Origin: Candidatus Margulisiibacteriota bacterium
Lineage (GTDB): Bacteria > Margulisbacteria > Termititenacia > Termititenacales > Termititenacaceae
Reading direction: 5' to 3'
Assembly: GCA_031274525.1 (NCBI GenBank)
Contig: JAISQA010000025.1
Coordinates: 1,294-65,293 of the forward strand
Length of the DNA stretch: 64,000 nucleotides
Shown: piece by piece, positions 2,178 to 42,694 of the stretch
Numbering within the stretch: position 1 is the stretch's first letter
How the letters are laid out: each line of letters starts with the position of its first letter
The notes under the pieces: model-generated
Database searches by the model: none
What the model saw: only the letters and a program-made list of their open reading frames with translations
Told to the model about the DNA's origin: nothing
Position numbers and translations under genes: made by a program

Positions 2178-3487
2178 AAAAATATGATCTAATCGTCATC
2201 GGCGCCGGCCCCGGCGGCTATGCAGCGGCGGCGCACGCGGCCCTGAACGGACTAAAAACTCTGCTGGTCGAAAAACAGCATTTAGGCGGCGCCTGTTTAA
2301 ACAGCGGCTGTATTCCGGTCAAAACTCTGCTGAACGCCGCGCATTTTTTGCAAAAAATCCGGAAAGCCAGTTTGTTCAATATCAAAGTCGAGCGGGCGGA
2401 GCTGGACTTCGCCGGACTTATCGACCGCAAAGACCGGCTGGCCAAACGGCTGCAAAAAGGCATCGCCAATCTGTTACAAAGCAGCGGCGTGGAAACGGTA
2501 TTCGGCACGGCGGAATTACTGCCGGGAAAGACAGTATCCGTGGCGCTGGACAGCGAGCATGGCCGAACCGTCCGCCAATACACCGCGGATAATATCATTC
2601 TGGCCACCGGGTCTGTGCCGGGGACTCTGCCAGGTATTGCTACTGACGGCGCATGGCTGTTGAACTCCAGTCAGCTGCTCGATCGTAAAACTATCCCGGC
2701 CAGTCTGGCCATCATCGGCGCGGGGGTTATCGGTCTGGAATTTGCGGATATTTACAGCCGTCTGGGCTGTCAGGTCACGCTCATCGATATCCTCGACCGG
2801 CTTTTACCCGGCGAAGACCGCGAGGCTGTCGAAATCATGCAAAAAAGTTTGCAGCGCGCGGGGTGTACTTTCAGGCTGGCCAGTAAAATAGCCAAAATCG
2901 AGAACCGGACTATATTTCTCTCCGGCGGACAGACTGTCGCCGCCGAACTCTGTCTGCTGGCCGCCGGACGCAAAATAGACACCGGCTATATTCAGGACAG
3001 CGCCCTGCTGAAAAATTCTAAAGGAATCCCGCAGGTCAATGAATTTTTCCAGACCAGCGTGCCGGGAATTTATGCCATCGGCGACATCAACAATATAGCG
3101 CTGTACGCCCACGCCGCAACTTATCAGGGCTTATGCGTCGTAAATAATTTACTCCCTGAGGCCGGCGGGCCCAATAAGCACAGTGCAGTTATGCCCAGAG
3201 TTATTTTCACCGCGCCGCAGATCGCCAGCGTCGGTCAGTACACCGCTGATTATAAAAAAATCCCTGTCGCGCTCCTCGGCCGGGCGCAGACCGAGGGTCA
3301 GACCGAAGGTTTCTTAAAATTATTCTTAGCTGAGAATAATTCTATTGCAGGCTGCGTTATTGTTTCCGAAAATGCCGACGCGCTCATCGGCGAGGCGGTG
3401 GCCCTCGTCAATACCCGCACAAAATACAGCGACCTCCAGAAGATGATCCACCCGCACCCGAGCTGGGCGGAAATATTTATACTTTAA
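2174..3487 (+). CDS. lpd: Dihydrolipoyl dehydrogenase-like class I pyridine nucleotide-disulfide oxidoreductase
   Basis: Probable GTG start at 2174 gives MKKYDLIVIGAGPGGY (FAD GxGxxG). Redox-active CLNSGC disulfide motif and a C-terminal HPHPSWAE His-Glu motif are present. Confidence 0.8.
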   Translation: MKKYDLIVIGAGPGGYAAAAHAALNGLKTLLVEKQHLGGACLNSGCIPVKTLLNAAHFLQKIRKASLFNIKVERAELDFAGLIDRKDRLAKRLQKGIANLLQSSGVETVFGTAELLPGKTVSVALDSEHGRTVRQYTADNIILATGSVPGTLPGIATDGAWLLNSSQLLDRKTIPASLAIIGAGVIGLEFADIYSRLGCQVTLIDILDRLLPGEDREAVEIMQKSLQRAGCTFRLASKIAKIENRTIFLSGGQTVAAELCLLAAGRKIDTGYIQDSALLKNSKGIPQVNEFFQTSVPGIYAIGDINNIALYAHAATYQGLCVVNNLLPEAGGPNKHSAVMPRVIFTAPQIASVGQYTADYKKIPVALLGRAQTEGQTEGFLKLFLAENNSIAGCVIVSENADALIGEAVALVNTRTKYSDLQKMIHPHPSWAEIFIL

Positions 3488-3513
3488 GCGCAGACCCTCT
3501 GCGTTTTATTTTA
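3488..3513 (+). terminator. Rho-independent terminator after lpd
   Basis: Hairpin cgcag-accct-ctgcg followed by TTTTATTTTA. Confidence 0.55.
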
Positions 3514-3516
3514 ATT

Positions 3517-6018
3517 TCAGGGATTTAAATAATATCTATCCGTCAGCAGCTCAGTCAACATTACGTCGTCCTTGAATAATTCCAGCACGGCGGTATAAAG
3601 TTCCAGACCGGTCATTTGTTTATCCGCTCCGGGATCCAGCATTTCTGCAATCAGCTGCGTAATTTTCGGAAATAAATTTTTGGCTTCCAGATACTGGATA
3701 GCCGCCTGAACAAAAGGAATACTTTTATTTTTCATGCTCAGATCGACCTGGCCTAACGCCAGCAAAATACAGGCAATGACCGGATTGCCGGCCATATCGC
3801 CGCAAATTTCTACTGGTTTGCCTCTAGCCTTGCTCTGCTGGATAATCGTGCGGATAGTATCCAGCACGCCATACTGCAGGCCGTCCAGACTGCTGATGTC
3901 TTTACGTTCTTTCTTGCCCACAATAGACATAGTTAAATCGTTCGAGCCGATGCTGACGCAATCCACAGCCTTTAAAATAGCGCCCAGAGAGGCCACCGCG
4001 CCGGGAGTCTCGATCATTACTCCCTCCCGCACTTTGGCCTGTGGAAATTCCGCCTGCAGCGGGGCAAAGAAAACCGCGTGATAATTGTCCAGCTCCTCCT
4101 TGCTCCGGATCATGGGATAAATAATCTCCAGCTGCGCCGCAGGCTGCTCCGCGGCCAGCATAAAGATCGCCCGCATGTACTCGGCCTGCGCCTCCCGGAC
4201 TGCCTGATTCTGGGGTAAAAAAAGATATTCATAAATAGTCTGACCCGGCAAAATCGCCGGCAGGTCGTTGATCGGCTCTTTATCCCGCCCTTCATCCAGC
4301 GTCCGGAAGGTTATGCCTGCGGGATGACTTTTTAAGGCCGCGCGTAAAATCCCCAGCCATTCCCGGCTGTTCAAGATCCGCCCCTGAGCCGAGAGCTCAA
4401 ATTCCATACGAAATAAGCCGATGCTGTCTGTATAATTTTGCAGAGCCGGCTCCTGATCTTTTTCTTTTCGGTTCGCGGTGTTTTCTTTTAATTTAGTCGG
4501 GCGGCTACCCGCGGTCAGTTTAACCCCTTTATAAAACTGCTGGCTAAAATACCCGGAAATCGCTCCGCTGCGGGCGGCGTTTTCTGCTAATACGACCAGA
4601 TCTTCCGGCCCAGGATTGATCAGCAGTCTGCTGCCGTAAAAAGCAGTCTGCGCGCCGCGGCTGATGTATTGCATAATCGAGGGCGGCAGGCCGACCAGCA
4701 GGGGAAAATCCAGTCCGTCAGCCACAATATAGGCGTGCGATTGATCGGAGGCGCCCAGAGCCACTGCGCCGGAGACAGCGCCGTGCTCGATATAATTATA
4801 GATCTGGGTGCTGGATATATCCTGCCCGAAAACGACAGACCCCGGATGGATCTGCTGTTCTTCCCCGTAAACAAAGGACTTACGGATAAACCGCAAATAG
4901 TTCAAAGGAATCTTTAGCGTGTCTGCGGCTTTGGAGTCCGGCATAAGCGCAACACTGCTCTCATATTTTTGAATATATTTATTGATCGTTTCCCAGGGGG
5001 TGACGGTTGAATCTGCCAGCAGTTTAACATTCAGACTGGCAAAAATACTTATTTCCGAAAAAACCCGAAACGGCTCTTTCTCCTGGATATACGCGCCCAG
5101 ATATTTGGTCAGGATCTCACCCGCCTCTACAGAGGACTCTCCGCGCACTGTCTCCAGCAGCTCTGCCAGACAATCAGCCACATTGATCTGCACATTATCC
5201 GGCAGATGAGACAGCTGCTGCCGACAATATTCTCGAAAAGAATATTCCACTGCTGCCTGTAAATAACTGACCGCTTTTTGTTTGACATAATCCGGGAGCT
5301 GCTCCAGATCATCCTGAGTAAGTTCGCTCTCTTTCCAGGCCCTGCCGTAAATCACCTTTTCGCCAAAATAGGGTTTGGGCAGAGCTATTTCGACCATGCC
5401 CTGATCCAGACTAAGTTTATAAGCCTGTAACGCTATCGCCCGGATATCCTCTATTCTCTGGCGCCGGTCAGGATTGGCCTGCAGCTCATACGGCGTATTT
5501 GACCGCAAAAGCAGGACGGACTCTTCCCACTCTGCCTCCGGCGCGCCTCCTTGAGGAATTTTCCCCAGAACTATGAACAGCAGGTGCTGGGCGGGATCGA
5601 GGCGGGAAGGTATTTCCAGAAAACGCACTCTACCGTCCACGCTCTGATACCAGTGTATATCGTCCGGAACATCCACCCATGCGCCCGGAATTGCCCCTTT
5701 GCAGGCAGAATCTATTTCTACAAATCTGGCAAAAACATATTCTTCCGGCTTTTCCGGATCAGCCGGTCTGCTGGTTTTGGCATTCATCGTGTGCAGATTG
5801 GTCTTAAAATTCCGCCAGCCGTTACGGCCGAGAGTATAGCGTTCACTGCTTTTAATCACACTGCCTTTGAAGCCGCGGTCAAACTCATTGCTGATCTGTT
5901 CCGTCTCAATATCCAGAATAGTATCCGTCGAGTAAACATATTTTTCACCTCTGTACGGCTCCAGTAAGGCGGCTCTACTCTGCGCTACATCGTTTTGGGC
6001 CAGAATTTTATAAAACAT
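3517..6018 (-). CDS. PEP-utilizing enzyme family protein (phosphohistidine domain plus C-terminal PEP-binding TIM barrel) with an atypical ~400 aa N-terminal region
   Basis: C-terminal ...CVSIGSNDLTMSIVGKKERKD...ICGDMAGNP... is the PEP-utilizers_C signature. SHAYIVADGLDFPLLVGL resembles the mobile phospho-His domain. The N-terminus is neither PPDK ATP-grasp nor EI HPr-binding type. Confidence 0.65.
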   Translation of the reverse strand: MFYKILAQNDVAQSRAALLEPYRGEKYVYSTDTILDIETEQISNEFDRGFKGSVIKSSERYTLGRNGWRNFKTNLHTMNAKTSRPADPEKPEEYVFARFVEIDSACKGAIPGAWVDVPDDIHWYQSVDGRVRFLEIPSRLDPAQHLLFIVLGKIPQGGAPEAEWEESVLLLRSNTPYELQANPDRRQRIEDIRAIALQAYKLSLDQGMVEIALPKPYFGEKVIYGRAWKESELTQDDLEQLPDYVKQKAVSYLQAAVEYSFREYCRQQLSHLPDNVQINVADCLAELLETVRGESSVEAGEILTKYLGAYIQEKEPFRVFSEISIFASLNVKLLADSTVTPWETINKYIQKYESSVALMPDSKAADTLKIPLNYLRFIRKSFVYGEEQQIHPGSVVFGQDISSTQIYNYIEHGAVSGAVALGASDQSHAYIVADGLDFPLLVGLPPSIMQYISRGAQTAFYGSRLLINPGPEDLVVLAENAARSGAISGYFSQQFYKGVKLTAGSRPTKLKENTANRKEKDQEPALQNYTDSIGLFRMEFELSAQGRILNSREWLGILRAALKSHPAGITFRTLDEGRDKEPINDLPAILPGQTIYEYLFLPQNQAVREAQAEYMRAIFMLAAEQPAAQLEIIYPMIRSKEELDNYHAVFFAPLQAEFPQAKVREGVMIETPGAVASLGAILKAVDCVSIGSNDLTMSIVGKKERKDISSLDGLQYGVLDTIRTIIQQSKARGKPVEICGDMAGNPVIACILLALGQVDLSMKNKSIPFVQAAIQYLEAKNLFPKITQLIAEMLDPGADKQMTGLELYTAVLELFKDDVMLTELLTDRYYLNP

Positions 6019-6146
6019 TTATCCCTTCTTTATTTACGGTATGTCTATACAATACCCTGTTTTGCTAAAAATATATCGTAAGTTTCCGGGTAAAATTGCA
6101 CAAAACAACCTTTTCCCGCAGACTACTTTACTGCTATACTACACAC

Positions 6147-6179
6147 CGGTTTCGGGGTGTGGCGCAGCTGGTAGCGTGC
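6147..6179 (+). repeat. attL: 33-bp direct repeat identical to the 5' end of tRNA-Pro plus 6 upstream nt
   Basis: cggtttcggggtgtggcgcagctggtagcgtgc is identical to 13662..13694. The sequences diverge immediately after. Confidence 0.8.
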
Positions 6180-6191
6180 TATCAACTTTAC

Positions 6192-6326
6192 TTGCGCATC
6201 ACCGAACAATTGCGCAAAGACATTCAGGATATGGCCCTTAAAGAGGAGCGCACGCTTAGCTCTATGACATACAAAATTCTAAAAGAATGGGTTAAATCCT
6301 ACAAGGAGAGCAAAAATGCCCGTTAA
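6192..6326 (+). CDS. Small ribbon-helix-helix (Arc/CopG-like) protein, paralog 1; start uncertain (TTG 6192 or ATG 6231)
   Basis: C-terminal ...RTLSSMTYKILKEWVKSYKE is paralogous to the downstream RHH ORF. The frame is open across the att core. Confidence 0.35.
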   Translation: MRITEQLRKDIQDMALKEERTLSSMTYKILKEWVKSYKESKNAR

Positions 6327-6477
6327 AAGGAAAAAAGTACTGGCCGTGGCCACCACCGAGGAAGTATTAAGCAGGCTAACGGACATTGCTACCAAAGATG
6401 ACCGCTCCATCAGCTTCCTTATACACAAGGCTATAGAGGAATGGCTGGAAAATCACCCGGAAAATACACAATCTTAG
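6316..6477 (+). CDS. Small ribbon-helix-helix (CopG/Arc-like) DNA-binding protein, paralog 2 (53 aa; below the ORF-track size cutoff)
   Basis: ATG at 6316 is preceded by an AGGAG RBS. Translation MPVKRKKVLAVATTEEVLSRLTDIATKDDRSISFLIHKAIEEWLENHPENTQS shows a beta-strand plus two-helix pattern. Confidence 0.45.
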   Translation: MPVKRKKVLAVATTEEVLSRLTDIATKDDRSISFLIHKAIEEWLENHPENTQS

Positions 6478-6490
6478 TTAAGGGGGATTT

Positions 6491-6787
6491 ATGGAAGTTT
6501 TGGCTGCAATCGTATTTTATATTTTTTTCTCCTGGCTTCATAAAACATTTTTTAGCAAGTGTCATTTGATTGCGCAAGTACTGATGACCGTTTGGGGGTG
6601 GGGAGTGGCCGCCTCCTTTTATTATGTTCCTGACCTGCTGGAGAAGGGGATAGACCCGTTAAGGATTATAGTTACGATGGGCGTCCTACCGCTTATTCCG
6701 GTCGGCTTTACTGCGTGCGCTGCCCTGATAAATGAGCTTATCAACAAGTATCTCGATAATATCAAACATATCCAGCCAAAACCTTAG
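6491..6787 (+). CDS. Small integral membrane protein (3 predicted TM segments), hypothetical
   Basis: Hydrophobic stretches IVFYIFFSWL, VWGWGVAASFYYV and GVLPLIPVGFTACAALI. A GGGG RBS lies upstream. Confidence 0.45.
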   Translation: MEVLAAIVFYIFFSWLHKTFFSKCHLIAQVLMTVWGWGVAASFYYVPDLLEKGIDPLRIIVTMGVLPLIPVGFTACAALINELINKYLDNIKHIQPKP

Positions 6788-6803
6788 TCCGCGCGGCTTA
6801 TCC

Positions 6804-7697
6804 TTACGCCTGCATCAGCCTGCCGGGCCTCCCGGCCTTATTGCGCAGATAGATTATCTCATCGCGGCGCGCCTGCGTTGTCCCCGGAGCCATATACTCC
6901 TCTTTCAGCTGTGCATCGGAAGGCAGGGAACCGAGAGCCGATAAATCCCCGCTCGGAATATCCATGGAGCTGCCGCCCGTCATATCCTTGAGCTTATGTA
7001 TTAAGTTGACCATACTGGCTCCCCTTGTGTCCATGAGCTGGCGCAATACACCCCTGTCCTCATCGCCAAGAATATGCAGATTATCTACAAAATTACGCGC
7101 CTCGGCGATTATCTTATTGGCGTCATTACCTAGCTTCCTCTTTTCGCTTTCAATGAATTTCTGCGCGTCTATATATCTCTGTTCGTCCGTCCGGGTATCC
7201 AGATAGCCGATACCCTCCAGTATTTTCAAAATACTCGACGTGACAACGCTGGCCTGCTCTTTATTCATACCTACGCTGTGATACGCCCTGGAAAGTGTGG
7301 ACGGCAACTTCTCGATGAGTTTGGACTTTTCGTTATCCTTCTCGAAAAAAGGCAAGAACTTTTCATCGGGCGCATAGTCCTGAAAGTACTCACTGTCTTT
7401 AGCCGGAGCGGTACCTTTAGAAATCGTGCGGCGTAAATCGAGGAGCCGCTTTTCGTAATTTTCTTTCTCTGTTTTAGTTTTATTAAAAAACTTTTCAGCG
7501 GCCTTTTCATCAAATTGACCGTCCTCAAACAGCGGCTCCCACGGCTTTCCCGCTACATCGAGGGTAACGGGAGCAGGAGAAGGATTATCACCACTATCAG
7601 TAGCGGCAGGATTATCAGCAGCCCCGCCCCCCCCTGCCGGATTTCCATCTCCCTCGCCTTCAACTGGAGATAATGTTGTTCCCTGTTCTTCATTCAT
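6804..7697 (-). CDS. Putative phage capsid scaffolding-like protein (acidic, helical)
   Basis: Likely start MNEEQG at 7697 with an AAGGAAGGGG RBS. G/P/D-rich acidic N-terminus followed by charged helical repeats. It sits where a scaffold gene would be in the terS-terL-portal-scaffold order. Confidence 0.35.
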   Translation of the reverse strand: MNEEQGTTLSPVEGEGDGNPAGGGGAADNPAATDSGDNPSPAPVTLDVAGKPWEPLFEDGQFDEKAAEKFFNKTKTEKENYEKRLLDLRRTISKGTAPAKDSEYFQDYAPDEKFLPFFEKDNEKSKLIEKLPSTLSRAYHSVGMNKEQASVVTSSILKILEGIGYLDTRTDEQRYIDAQKFIESEKRKLGNDANKIIAEARNFVDNLHILGDEDRGVLRQLMDTRGASMVNLIHKLKDMTGGSSMDIPSGDLSALGSLPSDAQLKEEYMAPGTTQARRDEIIYLRNKAGRPGRLMQA

Positions 7698-7698
7698 A

Positions 7699-8058
7699 TT
7701 AACCCCTTCCTTGCTGTAATTTTTGTGCCAGAGCCTCAAACGGCGGCTCACCTAAAACCTTTTTCCTTAAATCATCTATCTGCTCCTGCGCACGCCCGGA
7801 AATATTTTCCCCTTCCTGAATAAGCGGCAATATCTGCTCGGCGTGTGCCCCGGCTTCCTTCTCCGTAACAAAAACATGAGCAAATTCTACATAATCAGTT
7901 TTGACGCCTACAAGAATCTTTGCCAGAAGATAGCCCGATGTCGCCAGTGTATAACCGCATAGCGTACCCTTAGACACGGTCACGCCTTCCAGAACGCCAT
8001 TATTTTTTACTATTTTAGTAAAATAAATCTCACTCCCAATATCAAATAATTTACTCAT
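7699..8058 (-). CDS. Hypothetical phage protein (119 aa)
   Basis: ORF within the packaging/head gene block. Confidence 0.4.
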   Translation of the reverse strand: MSKLFDIGSEIYFTKIVKNNGVLEGVTVSKGTLCGYTLATSGYLLAKILVGVKTDYVEFAHVFVTEKEAGAHAEQILPLIQEGENISGRAQEQIDDLRKKVLGEPPFEALAQKLQQGRG

Positions 8059-8257
8059 CGTCTTTTACTTCCTTTCTTTTACGCCTGCGTCCAATGGCCC
8101 TGGTCGGGTCTGTACCATGGACGTCTTTAATAGCCTTTGCCGCTACCAGTTTCGCGTAATATTCCTGCGTGGCCTTACAAATCGTCGGTTTTATTTCGTT
8201 TGGCAGATTAGATGCCTGTATTTTGGCAATCACCAGAGTTAAATCAAAAAATAACAT
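8051..8257 (-). CDS. Hypothetical small basic phage protein (68 aa)
   Basis: ORF in the operon. C-terminal RRRKRKEVKDDE. Confidence 0.3.
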   Translation of the reverse strand: MLFFDLTLVIAKIQASNLPNEIKPTICKATQEYYAKLVAAKAIKDVHGTDPTRAIGRRRKRKEVKDDE

Positions 8258-8261
8258 ACTC

Positions 8262-8528
8262 TCACCCCTTTTCGTTTTTAGCTTTTTCCAGAATATCTTT
8301 GATATGGGAAACCATTTGCTGTTGACCTATTTTTGTAAAAGTAAAATTCACATTATCATAGCTGGGAAACCCGTTTCCGCTGAACCATTCCAGATATTCA
8401 ATAACTCCCTTACCGGCATCAGAATTGAAGACCTTTAAAACCTTAGCGCGGACGTCCAGCGCCCATTGTGCCCTTTCCGTCATTCTATTCTGGCCATTCC
8501 CCGTTATATTATGGTTGTTTTTCTGCAC
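8262..8528 (-). CDS. Hypothetical phage protein (88 aa)
   Basis: ORF in the operon immediately downstream of the portal gene. Confidence 0.35.
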   Translation of the reverse strand: MQKNNHNITGNGQNRMTERAQWALDVRAKVLKVFNSDAGKGVIEYLEWFSGNGFPSYDNVNFTFTKIGQQQMVSHIKDILEKAKNEKG

Positions 8529-10095
8529 GCCTTGCTATCGCCTTTCCCATTGCTTTCGCGTTATCCGCCTGCACGTCAGCCTCAATGGCCTGTGCCATTT
8601 GTTGCTGTTGCGCCTCAACTTGCTGTTCGCGAATTTGTTTTATCTCATCAGGGGTACGTATGAATACACCGGGGATACCCATTATATCCATTAAGTATGC
8701 CATTACTTCATCATACTTGAGCACCTGATTAACAATTTGCAGGGAAGGGTCCAGCTGGGTCAGCATCATCAGAGAATTTATAATACTCTGCGCTTCCGAT
8801 GCTTTTAGTTGTTTGGAAAGCTGGGTGTTAACTTTAATTTTAAAAATAACACCGTCAATCTGGGATACATTAAATTCTTTTTCGACAAACCTAAAATCAA
8901 TGAGCACCTCAAAGAGACGGCGCACCAGCGGAAGCACAAACTCACCAATGAGCCGTCCGAATACGGACGACAGATTGCGACGGAGCATATTCATTCGCTC
9001 CGATACCTCGTATGCCGTTCTAGCGGAATACTGACTGTCCGGCGGCAGGGTATTCCCCATCATGGATTGCTTAATGCCAAGCCGCATCTGGTCTATCTTA
9101 TAGCTCTCTACGTTGTGATTAGTCTGGATATTTAGCGGCTGTATGCTGGTTTGCGTGTCGGGCACCGGATTGAGAGCGAATGGAGTAAGCTCAAAGTCGT
9201 CCGGGTCAAGCATTGCGTCTTCCTGCACCAGTAAGGGCGGACAGTTAAACGCAAAAGCGCGCAGGGAATATTCCATGATTTTATTCAGAGACTTAATGTC
9301 ATTGAGCGCCTTCATACCCACGCCGCGCCCGTAAGGTTCCCCGGCGGCTTTATTCCACCGTAAAACAACAAAGGGGTTGGTTTTGGATTTACGCGTTAAT
9401 AAAACCCCGGCTTTTTTCTTATCTACGACATAATAATAATAAATATCCTCATCGTAATCCTTATACACGCACTCGATAATTTCCATTTTGTCTTTACCTT
9501 CAGCTTCACTGACGGCCATATCTTTCAGTTCGCGCCACTGGTGGCGAACAAGCTCTTTTCTCATCGAGAACGTCCTGAATACGCCGCGCACCTCACCGTC
9601 CCGGCCTTCTTCCAAACAATATTCATTGAGCGGAATAGCCCTGAAAACCAGAGGGCTGGTCAGACTGCCCGCGTGAACAAGCATACACGCCGTCCCCGCA
9701 ATCAAATCATAACAAAACTCCGAAAATGCCACATCGAAATTAGAAAGGTTCTTATATTCATTGGCCAGCCCGGAGAGCCTGTCCAGTTCGCGATTAATGT
9801 CATCTCTCTCATTCTCCGGGAAACTATTTCCGGCTTCCAGTTCAATCCACCCGGCATACGGAGGGCAAAGGACTTCCTGCATGGTAGCAACAAATTCGTC
9901 GCCGGCCACCTCGCCCGTGCTATCGAATGATTGAGAGCGGGTATCAGAATACGGGTTGGCGGTATTACCGGGCTTATCGAAACCATTTCTATCGGGCATT
10001 ATATAATCAAAAATTTCACGGTATTTACTATCCCATGATTTTTTAATCCCGGACGCTTTACTCTCTTTATCGATAATATCTTTTGCTGTTAACAT
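8509..10095 (-). CDS. Phage portal protein (T7 gp8-like head-to-tail connector family)
   Basis: 528 aa. ...SARTAYEVSERMNMLRRNLSSVFGRLIGEFVLPLVRRLFEVL... and the C-terminal Q-rich QQVEAQQQQMAQA tail parallel T7 gp8 (...ERVTAEEIRYVASELEDTLGGVYSILSQELQLPLVRVLLKQL, C-terminal QQKMAQQSMQ). Confidence 0.7.
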   Translation of the reverse strand: MLTAKDIIDKESKASGIKKSWDSKYREIFDYIMPDRNGFDKPGNTANPYSDTRSQSFDSTGEVAGDEFVATMQEVLCPPYAGWIELEAGNSFPENERDDINRELDRLSGLANEYKNLSNFDVAFSEFCYDLIAGTACMLVHAGSLTSPLVFRAIPLNEYCLEEGRDGEVRGVFRTFSMRKELVRHQWRELKDMAVSEAEGKDKMEIIECVYKDYDEDIYYYYVVDKKKAGVLLTRKSKTNPFVVLRWNKAAGEPYGRGVGMKALNDIKSLNKIMEYSLRAFAFNCPPLLVQEDAMLDPDDFELTPFALNPVPDTQTSIQPLNIQTNHNVESYKIDQMRLGIKQSMMGNTLPPDSQYSARTAYEVSERMNMLRRNLSSVFGRLIGEFVLPLVRRLFEVLIDFRFVEKEFNVSQIDGVIFKIKVNTQLSKQLKASEAQSIINSLMMLTQLDPSLQIVNQVLKYDEVMAYLMDIMGIPGVFIRTPDEIKQIREQQVEAQQQQMAQAIEADVQADNAKAMGKAIARRAEKQP

Positions 10096-10096
10096 T

Positions 10097-10450
10097 TTAT
10101 CCTAACTGGTTGGTTAATGATGGCATTGGGTAGGGGTTGACGCTTTCCGTTAAACTCGGCGCGCTGGTATAATTGGTCTTATAGTCGGTGATAGTTTGTT
10201 TCCTTTGTTTTAAAATATCCCCCCTGCGGCTTTCTTCCGCCAGTATCATGCTTCTTATGCGGGTAACATAATCATCGTACCGGGACTTAGTAATCCCGAC
10301 ACCGCCCTTGAGGGTAATATTAAAAACGGGTAAATCAAGCTCACGGGCCCTCTCGGTGAGCTCCTGTGCTTCGCCGGTAGGGTTCCATATTACCTCTTTC
10401 TTTTCCCAGTAATAGGTGGGTGGGCTTGATTTATTGTAATGTAATGGCAT
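10097..10450 (-). CDS. Hypothetical phage protein (117 aa) between terL and portal
   Basis: ORF coupled to the portal gene. Confidence 0.4.
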   Translation of the reverse strand: MPLHYNKSSPPTYYWEKKEVIWNPTGEAQELTERARELDLPVFNITLKGGVGITKSRYDDYVTRIRSMILAEESRRGDILKQRKQTITDYKTNYTSAPSLTESVNPYPMPSLTNQLG

Positions 10451-10496
10451 TTTCGTTTTTTATTATATTGCACCAATAAATCTGTCAAGTTTTATT

Positions 10497-11837
10497 TCAG
10501 AAAAATCTACCATTCCACTTCTTGGCTTTAAGTTTAGAAATTTTACTCCCGGACATCTCCATCATAGCAATAAGCGAGAAAGCATCGGCGGCATGGCTCG
10601 TCCAGTCATGAAAAGGAGTATCTTTAAATCTCTGTCTGTTCTCGTCATAGCCCCGGCGGTATTGCTTCAATGCCTCATAACCGGCTTCCGTTGTATCTTT
10701 ATTAAAATACACTCTCGACAAAATAGCCCTTGTGCGCTGTATCGCGCCATAAATATCATTGCGCCTTGGGTAAATCTTTATAGAGCGGCGGCCTAAATTC
10801 TTTAACTGTTGCTCAATTGTAAGGGCTCTGTCCCCGGACGTCATCTGCCTGTGAGCTCCGTCGTGCGGGATATGGTCTGTCTGGTAAAGATAACCTTTCC
10901 CCTGCAAGACGGCAACATAATGACCAAGCGCATACCCGTCATTTTCATAATAATCTATAACCCTTATTTCCTTGTTGATAAACTGGACAAACCAGATAGC
11001 CGTGCTGTCCGAAATGCCTAAATCCCAAAAAGTGTGAACCGGATACCCGGCATCGTGAGGAAACTTACCGTAATTAGTCTGTCTGTACTGGTCTAAAATA
11101 TCGGAATAATAAGAGCCAACCAGCGCACCGGAAAAACTACAGTAATATTCCTGCTGGATAATTTCCTCCATTTTACCCCGGCTTCTTTCCTCCTGGAGCA
11201 TATCCTCTGACACAATCGGCAACCCATTGTCATCAACGGTATCATTAATGGTCTTGAGGTCGGCAAAGTATTTATCGTGATTATTCAGCCATTCGAACAT
11301 ATCCTTGGCATGGTTAGAGCCCCTCGGCGTCGTATTAAAAACAACGAACCCGCGTGTCTCTTTCAGCATCGGCTCAATCGCAAGGTCAAAAAAACTCGGC
11401 TTATGAAGCGCGTATTCGGAAATTATCGCGCCCTGTAAACCGGCCCCCACGCGCTTATCGTACCTGTCGCCGCCAATCAGCGATATAATTGAGCCATTCT
11501 TGAAGTAAATTTTCATGGAATGATCATCAAGACGCTTAACTACTTCTCTGGGAATTAAGTCAAGATAACGCCTGCCGTCCGCGGTTATGCCTTCCCAGAT
11601 AGCATTGCGCGCCTGCTGTGCCTCCGGGAGGGCAAACCAGTAATTGCCAACTTTTTCTATAGCCTTGGCCGCGAGAAATTGCAGGCAAAATAAATCCTTG
11701 CCAGCGCGCCGGTGCCAGACCAGCATCGCCATATATTTCGCATAATGGTCTACGCCTTGATGAAGTTTATTCCAGGCATCTTTCTGGTATTTACGAAATT
11801 TAATTGTCGGAAATTTTATTTCTTTTGAGCTACTCAA
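10497..11837 (-). CDS. terL: Phage terminase large subunit
   Basis: Walker A-like WHRRAGKD near the N-terminus. Size is 446 aa. It overlaps terS by 8 nt and lies upstream of the portal gene. Confidence 0.7.
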   Translation of the reverse strand: MSSSKEIKFPTIKFRKYQKDAWNKLHQGVDHYAKYMAMLVWHRRAGKDLFCLQFLAAKAIEKVGNYWFALPEAQQARNAIWEGITADGRRYLDLIPREVVKRLDDHSMKIYFKNGSIISLIGGDRYDKRVGAGLQGAIISEYALHKPSFFDLAIEPMLKETRGFVVFNTTPRGSNHAKDMFEWLNNHDKYFADLKTINDTVDDNGLPIVSEDMLQEERSRGKMEEIIQQEYYCSFSGALVGSYYSDILDQYRQTNYGKFPHDAGYPVHTFWDLGISDSTAIWFVQFINKEIRVIDYYENDGYALGHYVAVLQGKGYLYQTDHIPHDGAHRQMTSGDRALTIEQQLKNLGRRSIKIYPRRNDIYGAIQRTRAILSRVYFNKDTTEAGYEALKQYRRGYDENRQRFKDTPFHDWTSHAADAFSLIAMMEMSGSKISKLKAKKWNGRFF

Positions 11838-12273
11838 GGTTTTTTTCTATTTTGATAGTAAGCTGGCCGAGTTCCGCATCAACCTTCTCTTTCCATAAGT
11901 CCGGTTGTCTCGTCTTCAGCCAGTAGATTGCGGCTGTAGTGTCCGGCGGAAAATACGCTTTTTTTTCTGTTTTTATTACGCTGCCCTTATGGACAAAAAC
12001 ATCTTCTATTTTTGCATTAAATCCAGTTGCTTTTTTATATAGAGAACTGGCAACTTCCGCGTCCGCCTTTACCCGTCCGGCTTTTATGGCCTCACCAAAC
12101 GCCGGGCGATTTTTTATCCAGTCAAAAATTACACGGTCTTTTACCTCAAAAAAATCTGCTATCCGGGAAACAGTAAAGCCGCCAAGAGCGAGTTTTCTGA
12201 CCTGCTCGGCAAATTCTGGCTTATATTTCTCCACAACATTTCGCAGAGAGCCCTTACCTTTAATTTTTACCAT
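11830..12273 (-). CDS. terS: Putative phage terminase small subunit (HTH-containing)
   Basis: N-terminal HTH (GGFTVSRIADFFEVKDRVIFDWIK). C-terminal AAIYWLKTRQPDLWKEK motif is typical of a TerS family. Position is immediately upstream of terL. Confidence 0.5.
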   Translation of the reverse strand: MVKIKGKGSLRNVVEKYKPEFAEQVRKLALGGFTVSRIADFFEVKDRVIFDWIKNRPAFGEAIKAGRVKADAEVASSLYKKATGFNAKIEDVFVHKGSVIKTEKKAYFPPDTTAAIYWLKTRQPDLWKEKVDAELGQLTIKIEKNLE

Positions 12274-12299
12274 GATTAAAGGTTATCACAACTATAGAT

Positions 12300-12316
12300 T
12301 TGTCAAGTATTGACAA
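12300..12316. promoter_or_regulatory. Perfect palindromic operator-like site TTGTCAA-gta-TTGACAA overlapping the -35 element
   Basis: 7-bp perfect inverted repeat with a 3-bp spacer in the divergent terS / xis-int intergenic region. Confidence 0.5.
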
Positions 12317-12338
12317 CTAATCAGCAGTGTGTTATACT
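12310..12338 (+). promoter_or_regulatory. Consensus sigma70-type promoter (TTGACA-17-TATACT) driving the xis-like/int genes
   Basis: TTGACA at 12310..12315, a 17-nt spacer, TATACT at 12333..12338, then an AAAGGGG RBS and ATG at 12361. Confidence 0.6.
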
Positions 12339-12360
12339 ATAAAAAGAAAGGGGTAAACAA

Positions 12361-12558
12361 ATGGAAGGGAAACGGGGTGGCGCAAGACCTAATTCCGGCG
12401 GTGCGCGGCCGGGTGCAGGAAGAAAAAAGGGCTGGCGAAAGCCGGAGGCAGAACGCAAAACGCGCGTTGTATGGGCCAGGTTACCCGAACCACTTTATGC
12501 CGTCTGGCTGAAACTCGGTGGGGCAACATGGTTAAGGGAGGTGCTGGAAAAACAATAA
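12361..12558 (+). CDS. Small basic protein (65 aa), putative DNA-binding / recombination directionality (Xis-like) factor
   Basis: Gly/Arg/Lys-rich N-terminus (GGARPNSGGARPGAGRKKGWRK). Immediately upstream of the integrase and translationally coupled to it. Confidence 0.35.
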   Translation: MEGKRGGARPNSGGARPGAGRKKGWRKPEAERKTRVVWARLPEPLYAVWLKLGGATWLREVLEKQ

Positions 12559-12580
12559 AAAATTGGTATGGAGGTTATGT

Positions 12581-13588
12581 ATGCTTTTCAAAAAAACTCT
12601 AAAATCCTATGCGGAAAATTTATTCAACCCTAATGGTAAATGGCGGAAAAACCGCGAAAGCAAAGGCTGGAATTTAGTAGATAAGGCTATTGCCGACAAG
12701 AACGCCCTTGTGAGAAATCATATTATTCCACTTTGGGGCAAAAGACAGCCGGATAAAATATCAATAAAAGAGATTAACGAAAAGCTCTACACACTCGACT
12801 TATCCAATGCCACAAAAAATAAAATACTCGTATGTCTCAATGATATTTTCACCTACCTAGCAGAACAGGAATTTATTAAAAGAAATCCAATTGTAGAAAT
12901 TTCCAGATTTTCCGACCGGCCCGTACTTCACCGGGGCGCATTAAGCCCGGAAGAAATAGATATATTATTTCCGCAATCACACGCAGAACTGCTTAAAATA
13001 TGGGGTTCCGAGATGTATGCCTGTGCATTTCTCGTTCTAAAAGATACCGGAATGAGACCGGGAGAATTAAGAGCTCTACGGTGGGGGGATTGGTATCCAG
13101 AGCACAGATTTATCCCGGTAACAAAAGCGATAGAAGCAAGCAAACGCACTAAAATTAAAAGCACAAAAACCGGGACAACAAAACCCGCGATTATTTCAAA
13201 ATTCACGGCGGCGGAACTTAACAATTATCGGGATAAAATTAAAGCCCTTCCCGAAAACTTTATTTTTATTTGCAAAAGTGGTTTACCGGTAAGTGATAGT
13301 ATTTTAAGTAAACGTTTTCGGCGGGGAGCCAGTCGCGCAGGATTAAACAGGCCAGAAGTTACTCCGTACTGGCTTAGATACACGTTTAATACGCGCATGT
13401 TAGAGGTGATGCCAGATGAGACCGTCCGTAAGTTAATGGGGCACGCTACCCCGGCAATGACCAAGCGTTATAGAGATGCGGACATAGCGTCCCTAAAACG
13501 AGAAGCACAAAAAATATCGCCGCTATACCCGGAAAGTTATACCATTACCCCCGCACCTGAAGACCTCCAGCTGGCTTTTGGATTCTAA
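12581..13588 (+). CDS. int: Tyrosine-type site-specific integrase
   Basis: Probable ATG at 12581 with a GGAGG RBS (the track ORF starts at TTG 12563). C-terminal catalytic region has LRHTFNT-like ...LRYTFNTRML... and ...GHATPAMTKRY... It is adjacent to a tRNA gene. Confidence 0.85.
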   Translation: MLFKKTLKSYAENLFNPNGKWRKNRESKGWNLVDKAIADKNALVRNHIIPLWGKRQPDKISIKEINEKLYTLDLSNATKNKILVCLNDIFTYLAEQEFIKRNPIVEISRFSDRPVLHRGALSPEEIDILFPQSHAELLKIWGSEMYACAFLVLKDTGMRPGELRALRWGDWYPEHRFIPVTKAIEASKRTKIKSTKTGTTKPAIISKFTAAELNNYRDKIKALPENFIFICKSGLPVSDSILSKRFRRGASRAGLNRPEVTPYWLRYTFNTRMLEVMPDETVRKLMGHATPAMTKRYRDADIASLKREAQKISPLYPESYTITPAPEDLQLAFGF

Positions 13589-13591
13589 AAA

Positions 13592-13620
13592 CTTGACTCT
13601 CACGGAAAGTCGGTGTACTA
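13592..13620 (+). promoter_or_regulatory. Candidate promoter (TTGACT-17-TACTAT) for tRNA-Pro, supplied by the element's end
   Basis: ttgactctcacggaaagtcggtgtactat lies about 45 nt upstream of the tRNA. Confidence 0.3.
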
Positions 13621-13661
13621 TAACTCCGAATTTCAACAAGGTATTTTTTTAGGTCGGTACT

Positions 13662-13694
13662 CGGTTTCGGGGTGTGGCGCAGCTGGTAGCGTGC
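13662..13694 (+). repeat. attR: 33-bp direct repeat overlapping the 5' end of tRNA-Pro
   Basis: Identical to 6147..6179. Confidence 0.8.
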
Positions 13695-13743
13695 CTGTTT
13701 CGGGTACAGGAGGTCGTCGGTTCGAGCCCGGCCACCCCGACCA
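13668..13743 (+). tRNA. tRNA-Pro (anticodon CGG)
   Basis: CGGGGTGTGGCGCAGCTGGTAGCGTGCCTGTTTCGGGTACAGGAGGTCGTCGGTTCGAGCCCGGCCACCCCGACCA. Acceptor CGGGGTG/CACCCCG, anticodon loop TTCGGGT, T-loop TTCGAGC, encoded CCA. Confidence 0.9.
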
Positions 13744-13950
13744 AATTAAACAAAACTATTTCCCAAAATAGTGGGGGGATATTCCATTCTTCCGAGACTA
13801 AATATACCCTAGTTGCCGTGTGTTTTATAAGAACTTTTTTCGGGTTGATTAAAATAGTCTAATAATTTCCGTATAGACATATTCTGTGTTTCAGCATACA
13901 CTTGGGCCTGTATAGTATTTTTCATTTTTATGCAATCAAATCGTTTTTCT

Positions 13951-14427
13951 TTAGTCGCCGTCATATTTCAATAACTCCCTTGGATTTCTAACCTCAATAA
14001 TAGCATATCCAGATTTAAGATTAACCCCATTATAACCCCTTATTCGGTCTAAATTTACTATATGCTTAAAATTCCAGCTTGCCAATACATCTGCTTTATA
14101 GATTGTTGCCAAAGCAATATGTCTACAATCATCAATACTAGTTTTTCCTACTACTTTCTCCCTAACATATTTATCGGCTAGTTTTATGGCTTCCTCTGTT
14201 AATTCAACATGCTCAAAAGAATTTGGATCATATTTATCTAACAGTGTTAAGACATTTTTCGGGGCTTTTTGTAATTCTTGTTCTAGTACACTTGAAATTA
14301 TAAAAATAACTTCTTTATTTTTCAGTCGTTCAAATAGTGCCTTTGTTTCACTGGCAAACTCGTCGTCAAAATAACCGCCAACTATCGATGTATCGATATA
14401 AATTCTCGTGACCATAGTCTTCTCCAA
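13951..14427 (-). CDS. PIN-domain protein (VapC-like ribonuclease fold), orphan
   Basis: N-terminal ...RIYIDTSIVGGYFDDEF... matches the PIN start with conserved Asp. Later acidic residues (ISSVLEQE, DDCRHIA) are consistent. Low-GC gene between two tRNAs. Confidence 0.6.
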   Translation of the reverse strand: MEKTMVTRIYIDTSIVGGYFDDEFASETKALFERLKNKEVIFIISSVLEQELQKAPKNVLTLLDKYDPNSFEHVELTEEAIKLADKYVREKVVGKTSIDDCRHIALATIYKADVLASWNFKHIVNLDRIRGYNGVNLKSGYAIIEVRNPRELLKYDGD

Positions 14428-14461
14428 TCAGCACAGAAAATCTTTCCACTTTTCAGGACAC

Positions 14462-34169: not shown

Positions 34170-34194
34170 CAGTAATTATTACTTAATGGTAATT

Positions 34195-34223
34195 TTGATA
34201 ATGCCTCTCCTGTAAGCTATAAT
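34195..34223 (+). promoter_or_regulatory. Sigma70 promoter TTGATA-17-TATAAT for the dcm-mig pair
   Basis: Near-consensus hexamers. GAGGAA RBS before ATG 34244. Confidence 0.5.
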
Positions 34224-34243
34224 AGTTATATTTGAGGAATTGA

Positions 34244-35257
34244 ATGTATAAAATACCAGAAATTACCTTTATCGACCTATTCGCCGGTATTGGCGGTATG
34301 AGAATGGCTTTTGATAAAGCTGGTTGCAAATGTGTATTTACTTCTGAATGGAATAAATATGCTCGGATAACCTATAACGAGAATTTTGGTGAACAACCTT
34401 ACGGCGATATTACCAAGATTAATGAAAATGATATTCCAGACCATGACATTCTGGTTGCCGGATTTCCCTGTCAGCCATTTTCTATTGCTGGTGTTTCTAA
34501 AAAAATCAGTCTTGGCAGAAGTCACGGTTTTTTAGATAAAACACAGGGAACTTTGTTTTTTGATGTAGCCAGGATCATTAAACAAAAAAGGCCAAAAATT
34601 GTTATGCTTGAAAATGTCAAAAATCTGGTCTCGCATGATAATGGTAATACATTTAAGACTATAAAAGATACACTGGAGTCGCTGAATTATACTGTGTCAT
34701 TCAAAATTTTGGATGGACAGCATTATGTTCCGCAACACAGAGAGCGTATCATTATTGTTGGATTAAACAGAGATACTTTCGGGAATGATATTGTATTCCA
34801 GTTCCCTGCATTGCCGAGTAAAGAATATAAGATAAAAGATATTTTAGAAAAGAAAGTTGATGTAAAATATACACTTTCTGACAAACTCTGGAAGTATTTA
34901 CAGAACTATGCCAAAAAACATCAGGAAAATGGTAATGGGTTTGGTTATGGGCTGGTTAATCTAAATAAGGTTTCCAGAACATTAAGTGCTCGTTATTATA
35001 AAGATGGTTCTGAAATTTTAATTCCACAGAGAAATAAAAATCCCCGACGACTTACACCCAGAGAATGTGCCAGATTGCAGGGATTTCCCGATACATTCAA
35101 AATAGTTGTGTCTGATACGCAGGCATATAAACAGTTTGGCAACTCAGTTGCTATGCCATTGATACACGATGTGGCAAAATCAATTGTGGACATATTAGCT
35201 TATACCAGACCGAGAAAAATACGCGAGGCTGAACCAGAACCAGTATTAGTGGGATAA
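34244..35257 (+). CDS. DNA (cytosine-5)-methyltransferase (Dcm-type)
   Basis: Motif I FAGIGG. Motif [10 protein letters not shown]. Motif VI LENVKNL. Motif [13 protein letters not shown]-terminal [13 protein letters not shown]...FGNSVAMPL. Confidence 0.9.
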
Positions 35258-35383
35258 TTATATGAATTTGAAACAGGCTTCATCTACTACACCCAAAATC
35301 AAGAAAAGGAGTCAATTCAGGGTACGGTCTGGATTTCTGGCAAATCTATACCATAATAATGAGATAATTGATCTTAATACAAT

Positions 35384-36031: not shown

Positions 36032-36040
36032 TCTTTAATC

Positions 36041-36090
36041 CCATTTTGCCCGCCTGCTTGGGCTTCGCCCCCAAAATTTTTCGGCGGGAC
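36041..36090. repeat. Left ~50-bp GC-rich inverted repeat (IR-L)
   Basis: Its reverse complement gtcccgccgaaaaattttgggggcgaagcccaagcaggcgggcaaaatgg matches 42817..42866 at 47/50 positions. Confidence 0.75.
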
Positions 36091-36097
36091 GGCGGGA

Positions 36098-38195: not shown

Positions 38196-38203
38196 GTTAA
38201 AAA

Positions 38204-39721: not shown

Positions 39722-39725
39722 AAGT

Positions 39726-42436: not shown

Positions 42437-42443
42437 ATCCTGT

Positions 42444-42650
42444 TTATTTAATTAAATCCTCGATTGTAACGCCAAGTGCTTTCGCTAATTTTGCCATGAT
42501 AAGTACGGACGGCTTTTTAATTACATTACTCTCAATTTTTGTCAGAGTAGTATATTTAACGCCTGATTTTTTGGCAAAATCTTCCTGCGATAAGCCTATC
42601 TTACCTCGATATTTCTTTATATTTTCTCCAATGTTTATTTCCGTTGCCAT
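42444..42650 (-). CDS. Controller (C) protein, XRE-family HTH regulator of the R-M operon
   Basis: 68 aa. ...IKKYRGKIGLSQEDFAKKSGVKYTTLTKIESN... is a classic C-protein HTH. First gene of the R-M operon. Confidence 0.75.
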   Translation of the reverse strand: MATEINIGENIKKYRGKIGLSQEDFAKKSGVKYTTLTKIESNVIKKPSVLIMAKLAKALGVTIEDLIK

Positions 42651-42676
42651 AATTTCAATTATTTGATAGTATTATT

Positions 42677-42694
42677 ATGAAGTGATATACTTTC
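42677..42694 (-). promoter_or_regulatory. Possible C-box-like imperfect palindrome upstream of the C gene
   Basis: TGAA-n-ATAT-n-TTCA symmetry (tgaagtgatatactttca) about 30 nt upstream of the C start. Confidence 0.2.

Follow-up and report, generated by a model that had tools for sequence, protein, structure and literature searches.

A tRNA-Pro-integrated element of a Candidatus Margulisbacteria bacterium, probably a prophage with a recent deletion, in which only the genes for integration, DNA packaging, portal and scaffold are kept from a small tailed phage

Is a ~7.5 kb element inserted at a tRNA-Pro gene of a Candidatus Margulisbacteria bacterium the remnant of a prophage, or a satellite that redirects the capsids of another phage? 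The first-pass annotation of the 64 kb stretch of DNA analysed here (the window) left this choice open, and both the anatomy that it described and the two alternatives that it drew are sound. Of the genes of a small tailed phage, the element retains only those for integration, DNA packaging, portal and scaffold; the most likely reading is a prophage with a recent deletion rather than a proven phage parasite.

Direct repeats identical over all 33 nt (6147-6179 and 13662-13694) delimit the element as claimed, and its low GC content was borne out as well (45.1% for the interior, 6180-13661, vs 54.1% for the window without its islands). GC is similar in three parts of the element (44.2, 45.8 and 43.2%). 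ARAGORN places an intact tRNA-Pro(CGG) gene, the integration target, at 13668-13743 (+). Accordingly, 6 nt of leader and the first 27 positions of the tRNA make up the repeat, and the intact gene is found downstream of the element. The right-hand copy (attR, 13662-13694, +) contains the 5' part of this gene and the left-hand copy (attL, 6147-6179, +) is displaced; the window has exactly two copies of the 27-nt tRNA segment, vs zero expected in shuffles. The first-pass annotation was correct in calling this geometry unusual: the repeat coincides with the 5' portion of the tRNA gene, with the element upstream and the integrase adjoining an att site, an arrangement that is rare but known and is found in other phages of this integrase family. 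Integrative elements recombining on the 5' side of tRNA genes have already been described (Zhao and Williams 2002, J Bacteriol 184:859, as cited in PMC6563490); as cited there, they likewise have an identity block at the tRNA 5' end and lie upstream, but differ in host phylum and integrase lineage. In the related loci L231 and L166 the 5' tRNA piece is oriented towards the integrase; in the present element both run in the same direction.

With the element upstream and the identity block at the tRNA 5' end, the element must supply the tRNA promoter. The earlier proposal that it does so is consistent with a promoter-like site (TTGACT-17-TACTAT, 9/12 matches; 13593-13621, +) between the integrase stop and the tRNA, 40-odd nt upstream of the latter, and with an equivalent motif just past the integrase stop in L166 and L231, although such motifs are no more frequent in the region than in shuffles. 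The presumed native tRNA-Pro promoter is represented by a TATACT -10-like hexamer in host DNA just left of attL (6135-6140, +), also present 8-12 nt 5' of tRNA-Pro in L166 and L231. After integration, this native-type hexamer presumably points into a ribbon-helix-helix (RHH) operon at the left end of the element.

The right end carries the integration module. Its tyrosine integrase (335 aa; 12581-13588, +; PF00589, E = 1.9e-19; phrog_1, E = 3.4e-41) is identical to MDR1997070.1 from a Ca. Margulisbacteria MAG. Directly 5' of it lies a 65-aa basic ORF (12361-12558, +) with no family match, a candidate excision or directionality factor judging by its position, since ORFs 39-45% identical to it occupy the same place in L231, L166 and L165. 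Both genes would be expressed from a promoter-like TTGACA-17-TATACT with an upstream TG (12310-12338, +; 11/12 matches, the best in the region), the -35 of which is overlapped by a perfect 17-bp palindrome, TTGTCAAGTATTGACAA (12300-12316), a candidate operator with a single perfect match in the window. The same module is carried by other, ordinary phages on 25-48 kb contigs, and 72 loci whose integrase is 40-59% identical proved to be without packaging genes. At the left end, the earlier statement that the element has no repressor does not hold, as two ORFs match PHROG Arc-like repressor families. RHH1 (6159-6326, +; phrog_3431, E = 1.9e-6) has an uncertain start, with a GTG within the att core (6159) and a TTG (6192) as candidates; RHH2 (6316-6477, +; Arc/CopG-like; phrog_3180, E = 1e-5) has a strong Shine-Dalgarno sequence, overlaps the RHH1 stop and scores 5.5e-5 against an NCBIfam RelB-like antitoxin, below the cutoff. 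The gene that follows, also overlooked earlier, encodes a small orphan membrane protein (98 aa; 6491-6787, +) with three hydrophobic, predicted transmembrane segments, no family match and no IMG/VR relative; superinfection exclusion would be a purely speculative role for it.

Between these ends, on the minus strand, all ORFs of the packaging block are intact and its eight genes are translationally coupled in the order terS-terL-o117-portal-o88-o68-o119-scaffold. The small terminase subunit terS (11830-12273; phrog_309, E = 2.3e-38) is of a type shared only with L089 among the loci compared. The large subunit terL (10497-11837; phrog_2, E = 2.3e-23) is 53-61% identical to terL of related podophages and keeps the RRAGKD, SE, TPRG, WDLGISD, HDG and HDWTSH motifs. 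The portal (8509-10095) is of the T7 gp8 'head-tail connector' type (PF12236, E = 5.5e-64; phrog_332, E = 2.8e-76), has solved relatives in 9efk and 8ck0, and departs from conserved columns at 1/71. The small ORFs differ in conservation: o117 (10097-10450), between terL and portal, is an orphan with no family match and no relative; o88 (8262-8528), directly after the portal, has homologues at the same position in 10 loci; and o68 (8051-8257), downstream of the portal, has them in L002, L086 and L089. For o119 (7699-8058), a conserved phage ORF, tblastn gives matches of 30-39% identity at 10 loci. In relatives the gene precedes terS/terL, but here it sits between o68 and the scaffold gene, with its start and stop overlapping the neighbouring genes (AF2 model, pLDDT 51). 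The scaffold, or capsid assembly protein (297 aa, ending in GRLMQA; 6804-7697; MDR1997062.1 at NCBI), aligns with the scaffolds of L002, L003 and MEP301 and is 38-48% identical to the 'capsid assembly protein' gene, which in relatives is located between those for portal and capsid. The terS packaging operon showed no sigma-70-like promoter. All genes named in the first-pass annotation (integrase, small basic ORF, terS, terL, portal and scaffold-like gene) are confirmed, the integrase, terS, terL and portal with Pfam/PHROG support and the basic ORF by conserved position only.

The terS-terL-portal-scaffold module is that of HTVC010P and Methylophilales phage MEP301-like podophages (~35 kb, portal PF12236, capsid PF19821), with which the block shares the order terS, terL, portal, two small ORFs and scaffold at 40-60% identity. 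Portal identity is 27-32% to cultured podophages and up to 57% to uncultured contigs, scaffold identity is 30-48% to related podophages, and the closest portal relatives (up to 57%) are contigs with capsid and tail genes, many of ~35 kb, or short fragments. These podophages show no integrase of the family found here. Upstream of terS they carry early and replication genes, and past the scaffold they continue into capsid, tail tubular protein and further genes, all absent from the element. In 17/17 related loci with a scaffold gene, a PF19821 capsid gene follows within 130-680 bp, whereas the element breaks off 16 bp past the scaffold at the convergent membrane-protein gene, so that the gene order does stop where a coat gene was expected. 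Searches by tblastn with all ORFs of seven relatives gave matches confined to 6807-12255 and no capsid, tail, lysis or replication homologue in the whole 64 kb window, and Pfam and PHROG revealed no tail tubular, tail, lysis or replication genes, in line with the absences first noted. The scaffold C-terminus is 2 residues short compared with all 17 relatives and the convergent gene follows after 16 bp (6788-6803) without a terminator; the junction therefore looks like a scar, putatively of a deletion, rather than an evolved gene end.

The balance of this evidence leans towards an internally deleted (defective) prophage that may still excise. From the anatomy, we infer that a temperate podophage with HTVC010P/MEP301-like packaging and head genes, a T7-type portal and a tyrosine integrase entered tRNA-Pro(CGG) of a Candidatus Margulisbacteria bacterium. 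If its attP carried a promoter plus the tRNA 5' end and crossover took place within the 33-bp core, the intact tRNA would be a hybrid fed by element DNA, and the displaced 5' stub would keep the host promoter, now reading into the Arc-like RHH/RHH/membrane-protein operon, whose products may confer immunity or exclusion. An internal deletion of ~25-30 kb would subsequently have taken out the whole stretch from the capsid gene to the end of the membrane-protein gene, with the tail, lysis and early/replication genes in it, and left two att sites, the xis-like/integrase module with its putative strong promoter and palindromic operator, and the terS-to-scaffold operon. Such a remnant would be unable to build a particle alone and would probably still be able to excise and re-integrate. 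Colinearity of the block with ~35 kb podophages up to the scaffold argues for this history; the GC content (45% vs 54%) and perfect repeats fit a recent arrival and a recent deletion, which would explain why the remaining ORFs are still intact. Also counted in its favour were the missing capsid gene after the scaffold, the scar-like junction at the shortened scaffold, the absence of other phage genes from the window, the lack of a late promoter, the unique architecture, the occurrence of the integrase module in ordinary phages, an incomplete prophage in Ca. Termititenax aidoneus, and decay of mobile DNA elsewhere in the window. Against a deletion, no kept gene is damaged, the retained set is exactly one coherent functional module with both ends clean, and o119 is placed differently from all relatives. 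The early genes upstream of terS are also missing compared with all known relatives, so one deletion would be enough only for an ancestor with convergent arms, of which none was found. Among defective prophages with att sites and an integrase still in place are e14, DLP12 and Rac of E. coli K-12, and classical cryptic prophages usually show pseudogenes, insertion sequences and mixed leftovers. The element resembles them in having att repeats at a tRNA or other gene, an intact integrase, phage genes within the repeats, and a partial gene set that lacks particle-formation functions; it differs in being one complete functional block without a damaged ORF, where the two missing scaffold codons are the only feature that might point to decay.

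It is doubtful, if conceivable, that the element is instead a new kind of phage satellite, excising upon infection or induction of a related helper podophage that switches on the late operon. Its scaffold and portal might then nucleate procapsids from helper capsid protein, which its TerS and TerL would fill with element DNA, with the helper giving tails and lysis, a scheme that we regard as equally tentative. The intact, translationally coupled packaging operon is consistent with such a role, as are portal and TerL conservation equal to that of bona fide phages, perfect att repeats, and an integrase module intact with its promoter-like site and candidate operator. The gene set is exactly that needed to redirect assembly and packaging, and helper dependence fits the absence of a late promoter belonging to the element. 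Within this phage clade, conservation is highest for the capsid protein (up to 83% identity where scaffolds have 48-60%), so one scaffold could fit many helpers. However, the satellite reading gains no positive support: there is one example only, from a MAG; no relative of the same architecture occurs among the best 80 of 596 portal loci, the 72 integrase loci and IMG/VR (o117, 98-aa membrane ORF and attP junction); no primase/replicase, AlpA-type regulator or interference gene is present; the packaging operon has no sigma-70-like promoter; the shortened scaffold abuts the break; and the window holds no helper-like phage. The first-pass annotation had looked to a hidden capsid gene and full prophages in close relatives as signs of simple decay; no capsid gene exists and no full-length prophage was seen at the site in a close relative within this barely sampled host lineage, so neither sign of simple decay was observed. 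On balance, a satellite origin is weakened but keeps some probability. Described satellites with portal and TerL all encode a capsid protein too (cfPICI, Mulch/Flayer; PMC10085698, PMC10690885). cfPICI resemble the element in being small islands that have an integrase, terS, terL and portal but no tail or holin genes (PMC10085698). They also encode a major capsid protein, usually a protease, a head-tail adaptor and connector, an AlpA-type regulator and a primase-replicase, with a median of 14 kb. The element lacks the major capsid protein and protease and, by Pfam, PHROG and NCBIfam, a primase-replicase, AlpA/MerR/Stl-type regulator, head-tail adaptor and connector, its regulators being Arc-like RHH proteins. 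Nor is it a SaPI-like PICI, having a portal, a component forbidden for PICI in SatelliteFinder (PMC10085698), and terL, and no primase-replicase. In SaPI-type PICIs and P4, a satellite scaffold (CpmB, Sid) and own TerS redirect helper assembly and packaging (PMC10690885), the same idea as in this reading, but these satellites lack TerL or portal, replicate autonomously and have unrelated scaffolds, whereas the present scaffold is an ordinary phage one. MulchRoom and MiniFlayer of Streptomyces provide a precedent for satellites without key replication genes (PMC10690885) and share the terS, terL, portal and scaffold module, MulchRoom also having a tyrosine integrase; they differ in encoding their own major capsid protein and head-tail adaptor, in being larger and in being unrelated in sequence.

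Less probable still is a mosaic mini-element, in which an integrative backbone of ~2 kb, made up of the two RHH genes, the membrane-protein gene, the xis-like ORF, the integrase and attP, captured a packaging/portal/scaffold cassette by illegitimate recombination. The cassette would be kept because it benefits the host or the element: a co-resident phage might, for instance, carry out pac-initiated lateral transduction of the adjacent chromosome, or mis-assembly might interfere with incoming podophages. The integrase/xis module has its relatives among termite-gut Margulisbacteria phages of other morphotypes and the packaging block among HTVC010P-like podophages, and the two were not seen together elsewhere among the loci compared; the 5.5 kb block ends at gene boundaries on both sides and o119 has been relocated into it. 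Phage mosaicism alone explains the differing ancestries, however, GC is uniform across the three parts, the promoter/terminator layout gives no hint of a cassette, and there is neither a precedent nor a second copy. We consider an assembly artefact very improbable, in which population heterogeneity or a chimeric join at 6788-6803 would have made the contig of this metagenome-assembled genome leave out the central part of a full-length prophage: the junction is abrupt, but it has no repeat to mislead an assembler, both flanking ORFs have proper ends, the contig is long at 87 kb, and NCBI and JGI record identical proteins.

For the deleted prophage that we favour, sampling of the host lineage is so sparse that neither a full-length phage version nor an empty site was found. 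In Ca. T. aidoneus, the orthologous chromosomal site holds Neck1-TMP-xis-int with the same integrase module and without distal tail or lysis genes, and is another, different incomplete prophage. Elsewhere in the window, decay of mobile DNA is seen in an AAA_13 gene split into three ORFs.

The element (6147-13694) is bounded by two identical 33-nt copies of CGGTTTCGGGGTGTGGCGCAGCTGGTAGCGTGC (attL, 6147-6179; attR, 13662-13694), and the 27-nt tRNA part of this repeat occurs exactly twice in the 64 kb and has no match in shuffled sequences. ARAGORN places tRNA-Pro(CGG) on the plus strand at 13668-13743, so the repeat comprises tRNA positions 1-27 preceded by 6 nt of leader, and the intact tRNA gene follows downstream of the enclosed DNA. 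The enclosed 7,482 bp have a GC content of 45.1%, compared with 54.1% for the window without its islands. Most of this DNA is a minus-strand chain of overlapping or abutting ORFs from terS to scaffold. According to Pfam and PHROG profiles, the chain encodes TerS (11830-12273; phrog_309, 2e-38), TerL (10497-11837; phrog_2), the orphan ORF o117 (10097-10450), a portal protein (8509-10095; PF12236, 5e-64; phrog_332, 3e-76), three small ORFs conserved in relatives (o88, 8262-8528; o68, 8051-8257; o119, 7699-8058) and an orthologue of the relatives' scaffold (6804-7697). No promoter was found for this packaging operon. At the right end, on the plus strand, a promoter-like TTGACA-17-TATACT site (11/12 matches) precedes a 65-aa basic, xis-like ORF (12361-12558) and a tyrosine integrase gene (12581-13588; PF00589, phrog_1). 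The promoter-like site is overlapped by the perfect palindrome TTGTCAAGTATTGACAA, a candidate operator that is unique in the window, as a search for further copies found none. The left end carries three plus-strand ORFs: RHH1 (6159/6192-6326) and RHH2 (6316-6477), both Arc-like ribbon-helix-helix proteins matching PHROG Arc-like repressors (E 2e-6 and 1e-5, respectively), and memb98 (6491-6787), encoding 98 aa with three hydrophobic segments. The first-pass annotation gave an accurate inventory of the other genes but overlooked these three, and its statement that the element has no repressor is wrong in view of the two Arc-like ORFs. A Candidatus Margulisbacteria MAG (87 kb contig) encodes an identical integrase, TerS, portal and scaffold (MDR1997070, -069, -066 and -062, respectively), and the site is flanked by LpxB and RecN. 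The left flanking gene (3517-6018) encodes an 833-aa protein in which only the C-terminal third matches a family (PEP-utilising enzyme, PEP-binding domain), the long N-terminal part having no Pfam match.

The packaging block is related to that of podophages. The portal has 93 homologues (best 57% identical), many of them on contigs of ~35 kb, and its cultured relatives are Methylophilales phage MEP301 and HTVC010P-type pelagiphages (27-32% identity). MEP301 and the uncultured contigs share the order o119-like gene, terS, terL, a few small ORFs, portal, two small ORFs, scaffold, capsid (PF19821) and tail genes. The window departs from this arrangement, which it otherwise follows between terS and scaffold, in two points: the position of o119 and the absence of anything after scaffold. 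Among all fetched loci with a scaffold homologue, a capsid gene lies 130-680 bp downstream of scaffold in 17/17, bearing out the earlier observation that the gene order ends where a coat gene is expected. An o119 homologue lies upstream of terS/terL in each of the 12 scaffold-bearing loci where one was detected, whereas in the window o119 sits between o68 and scaffold and is translationally coupled. It has no family match, a word-based homologue search returned o119 alone, and its single-sequence AlphaFold model has a pLDDT of 51. Translated ORFs of seven relatives matched the window only within 6807-12255, and this comparison revealed no capsid, tail, lysis or replication genes in the 64 kb. 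A hidden capsid gene within the element was considered and rejected: the capsid protein of this clade is highly conserved, yet has no tblastn match in the window, and the sole ORF of capsid-compatible size is the scaffold orthologue. Neither whole-element blastn (distant mode) nor the integrase identified useful cultured-phage relatives, and no solved structures for TerL or scaffold were found by sequence. The 90% protein cluster holding the window portal has an unrelated 40-aa representative (P0154) that is not encoded in the window; the homologue search therefore missed the portal self-match and could have missed close relatives likewise. Exact-protein look-up of the integrase and portal in other contigs returned no record. 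Separately, a solitary T7-type portal homologue (26% identical; phrog_332, 4e-56) is found at 10001-12631 of locus L238, a 2.87 Mb chromosome (ERZ25074506), among metabolic genes with no other phage gene nearby and next to a gene (320 aa) that is not scaffold-like. This homologue is either a domesticated portal or a remnant consisting of a single gene; its protein cluster has 8 member sequences.

The break itself lies at the end of scaffold. The protein aligns to its relatives up to its very end, terminating in ...GRLMQA before the stop, where 17/17 relatives have two extra C-terminal residues (LMDAQF, LMDASY and the like). The convergent memb98 ORF ends 16 bp beyond the scaffold stop, with no terminator-like hairpin between the two genes, and we interpret this junction as the scar of a deletion in, or just at, the final scaffold codons. 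Because the last two residues are variable among relatives, the scaffold protein may well still work. The retained genes contain no frameshifts. Among alignment columns at least 90% conserved, the portal is off consensus in 1/71, on par with any phage in the alignment, and TerL in 15/149, the most among full-length sequences; most of the TerL deviations are conservative, with its ATPase and nuclease motifs preserved.

The integrase module has a different distribution. Its 59 integrase homologues derive mostly from JGI, ENA and Logan metagenome assemblies, and the named ones mainly from Candidatus Margulisbacteria MAGs, Ca. Termititenax aidoneus and Treponema primitia. Scanning metagenome and viral contigs with an integrase profile yielded 72 fetched loci (integrase 30-59% identical), and 0/72 have a counterpart to terS, terL, portal, scaffold or any of the small ORFs. 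Apart from the integrase, the only common gene is the 65-aa ORF preceding it, present in L231 (a phage contig from IMG/VR) and in L166 and L165 (both Ca. T. aidoneus). The integrase accompanies myovirus-like baseplate genes and a reverse transcriptase in L165, belongs to siphovirus-like genomes in L167/L168 and L231, and occupies other chromosomal sites in L240 and L241, two loci that proved uninformative. No match to o117, memb98 or the predicted attP junction came up in IMG/VR scans, and the combination of this integrase with the packaging block is unique among the searched collections. In the myovirus-like prophage end of L165 (8142-10712 of BGZN01000032), the RVT_1 reverse transcriptase gene adjoins the xis-like/integrase pair and may represent a diversity-generating retroelement.

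The attachment geometry is unusual. The first-pass annotation was correct that the repeat is the 5' part of the tRNA with the element upstream, a mildly interesting detail: integration into the 5' part of tRNA genes is known and, in the literature as relayed in PMC6563490 (Zhao and Williams 2002 and others), much rarer than integration into the 3' part. The predicted circular (attP) junction of the excised element reads ...TAGGTCGGTACT + 33-nt core + TATCAACTTTAC..., and the predicted empty site ...CTATACTACACA + 33-nt core + CTGTTTCGGGTACAGG.... Integration on the 5' side appears characteristic of this integrase lineage, since L231 (IMG/VR UViG_3300009784_000031, ~3420-3600) contains a phage-borne 5' tRNA part. 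Directly 3' of its integrase, which is 55% identical to that of the window, the opposite strand holds the first 38 nt of a tRNA-Pro(UGG) together with a TATACT hexamer, and phage genes flank this stretch on either side. The tRNA piece faces the integrase in L231 and L166 and runs in the same direction as the integrase in the window. A promoter-like motif lies 3' of the integrase stop in all three loci (window, L166 and L231). That of the window, TTGACT-17-TACTAT (13593-13621, plus strand), is the obvious candidate driver of the hybrid tRNA-Pro, and, judging from sequence, the host-side TATACT at 6135-6140 would now point through the displaced stub into the operon of RHH1, RHH2 and memb98. An attP carrying the tRNA-Pro 5' end and a promoter is a rare geometry of a phage integrase lineage; it would make the tRNA reliant on sequence from the element, and the regulator operon of the element reliant on the promoter of the host tRNA. 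In L165 (BGZN01000032), a fragment resembling a tRNA 3' end lies 3' of the integrase, indicating that the lineage uses 3'-type sites too.

The same site is occupied in a related genome. L166 shares tRNA-Gly(CCC), RecN and LpxB with the window, and at 6710-10700 (BGZN01000027) it encodes, in order, Neck1, a 64-aa ORF, tape measure, the xis-like ORF, integrase and a 5' fragment of tRNA-Pro (positions 1-35) preceded by a TATACT hexamer. Distal tail and lysis genes are absent from L166 and an intact tRNA-Pro was not detected within reach, so that this locus looks like another incomplete prophage at this hot spot, of siphovirus type and apparently defective. A search of a species-representative genome collection for a full prophage or an empty site in related genomes gave nothing with the portal profile; the best RecN match in that collection is only 39% identical, indicating that the host lineage is not represented there.

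We lean towards the most economical reading, that the element is what a recent deletion has left of a prophage, derived from a temperate HTVC010P-like podophage of Margulisbacteria, and that it may still excise. The break falls exactly where synteny predicts further genes, the scaffold end is short and followed by no terminator, and the packaging operon has no detected promoter. The element also lacks replication, regulator or interference genes of satellite type, occurs once (among the best 80 of 596 portal loci, the 72 integrase loci and the IMG/VR scans), and has incomplete prophages and a split AAA_13 gene for company in the same or a related genome. The intact genes imply either a recent deletion, which fits the unameliorated GC content and perfect repeats, or a block under selection. 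We give little credence to a captured cassette with another selected role, and very little indeed to misassembly. As a remnant, the element is an ordinary outcome of prophage decay and a clean natural example of a packaging-only leftover, which could still mobilise DNA upon infection by a compatible phage. It also records temperate relatives of HTVC010P-like podophages in a barely sampled, uncultured termite-gut phylum.

That the element is a phage satellite, one of the possibilities that the first-pass annotation had raised from an accurately described anatomy, is unlikely, as the single occurrence and the lack of satellite-type genes leave the suggestion unsupported. The surviving module is nevertheless fully intact and functionally coherent, its mobilisation genes are intact, and no partner on offer would be more conserved than the capsid protein of a helper. 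Known satellites with portal and TerL (cfPICI, PMC10085698; MulchRoom/MiniFlayer, PMC10690885) always encode a capsid protein too, so a capsid-less satellite would be new, and such a kind cannot be claimed from one MAG. Slightly less likely again is a working, so far undescribed satellite with its own TerS, TerL, portal and internal scaffold and no capsid protein. Such an element would seed procapsids from the highly conserved capsid protein of a helper podophage, fill them with its own DNA and rely on the helper for tails and lysis; with no replication genes of its own, packaging would proceed from the excised circle or in situ. If true, this would be a new hijacking strategy, in which portal vertex and scaffold, rather than the capsid protein, are taken over.

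Two other low-GC regions lie in the window. An islet of 33% GC between tRNA-Pro and tRNA-Gly(CCC) (13744-14461) contains, on the minus strand, a PIN-domain gene (13951-14427); the gene in that place in Ca. T. aidoneus is unrelated (115 aa), so this spacer is variable, and the islet may have remained from another element or be a solitary toxin gene. Between tRNA-Glu(CTC) and tRNA-Ser(GGA) lies a second island with a far lower GC content (34170-43200; 33.7%), a restriction-modification/defence island. It encodes a C5 cytosine methylase, an HhH-GPD glycosylase-like protein, an AlwI-family endonuclease, a Dam-like methylase, a RadC-Dam fusion and an AAA_13 ATPase split into three ORFs, which is probably a pseudogene.
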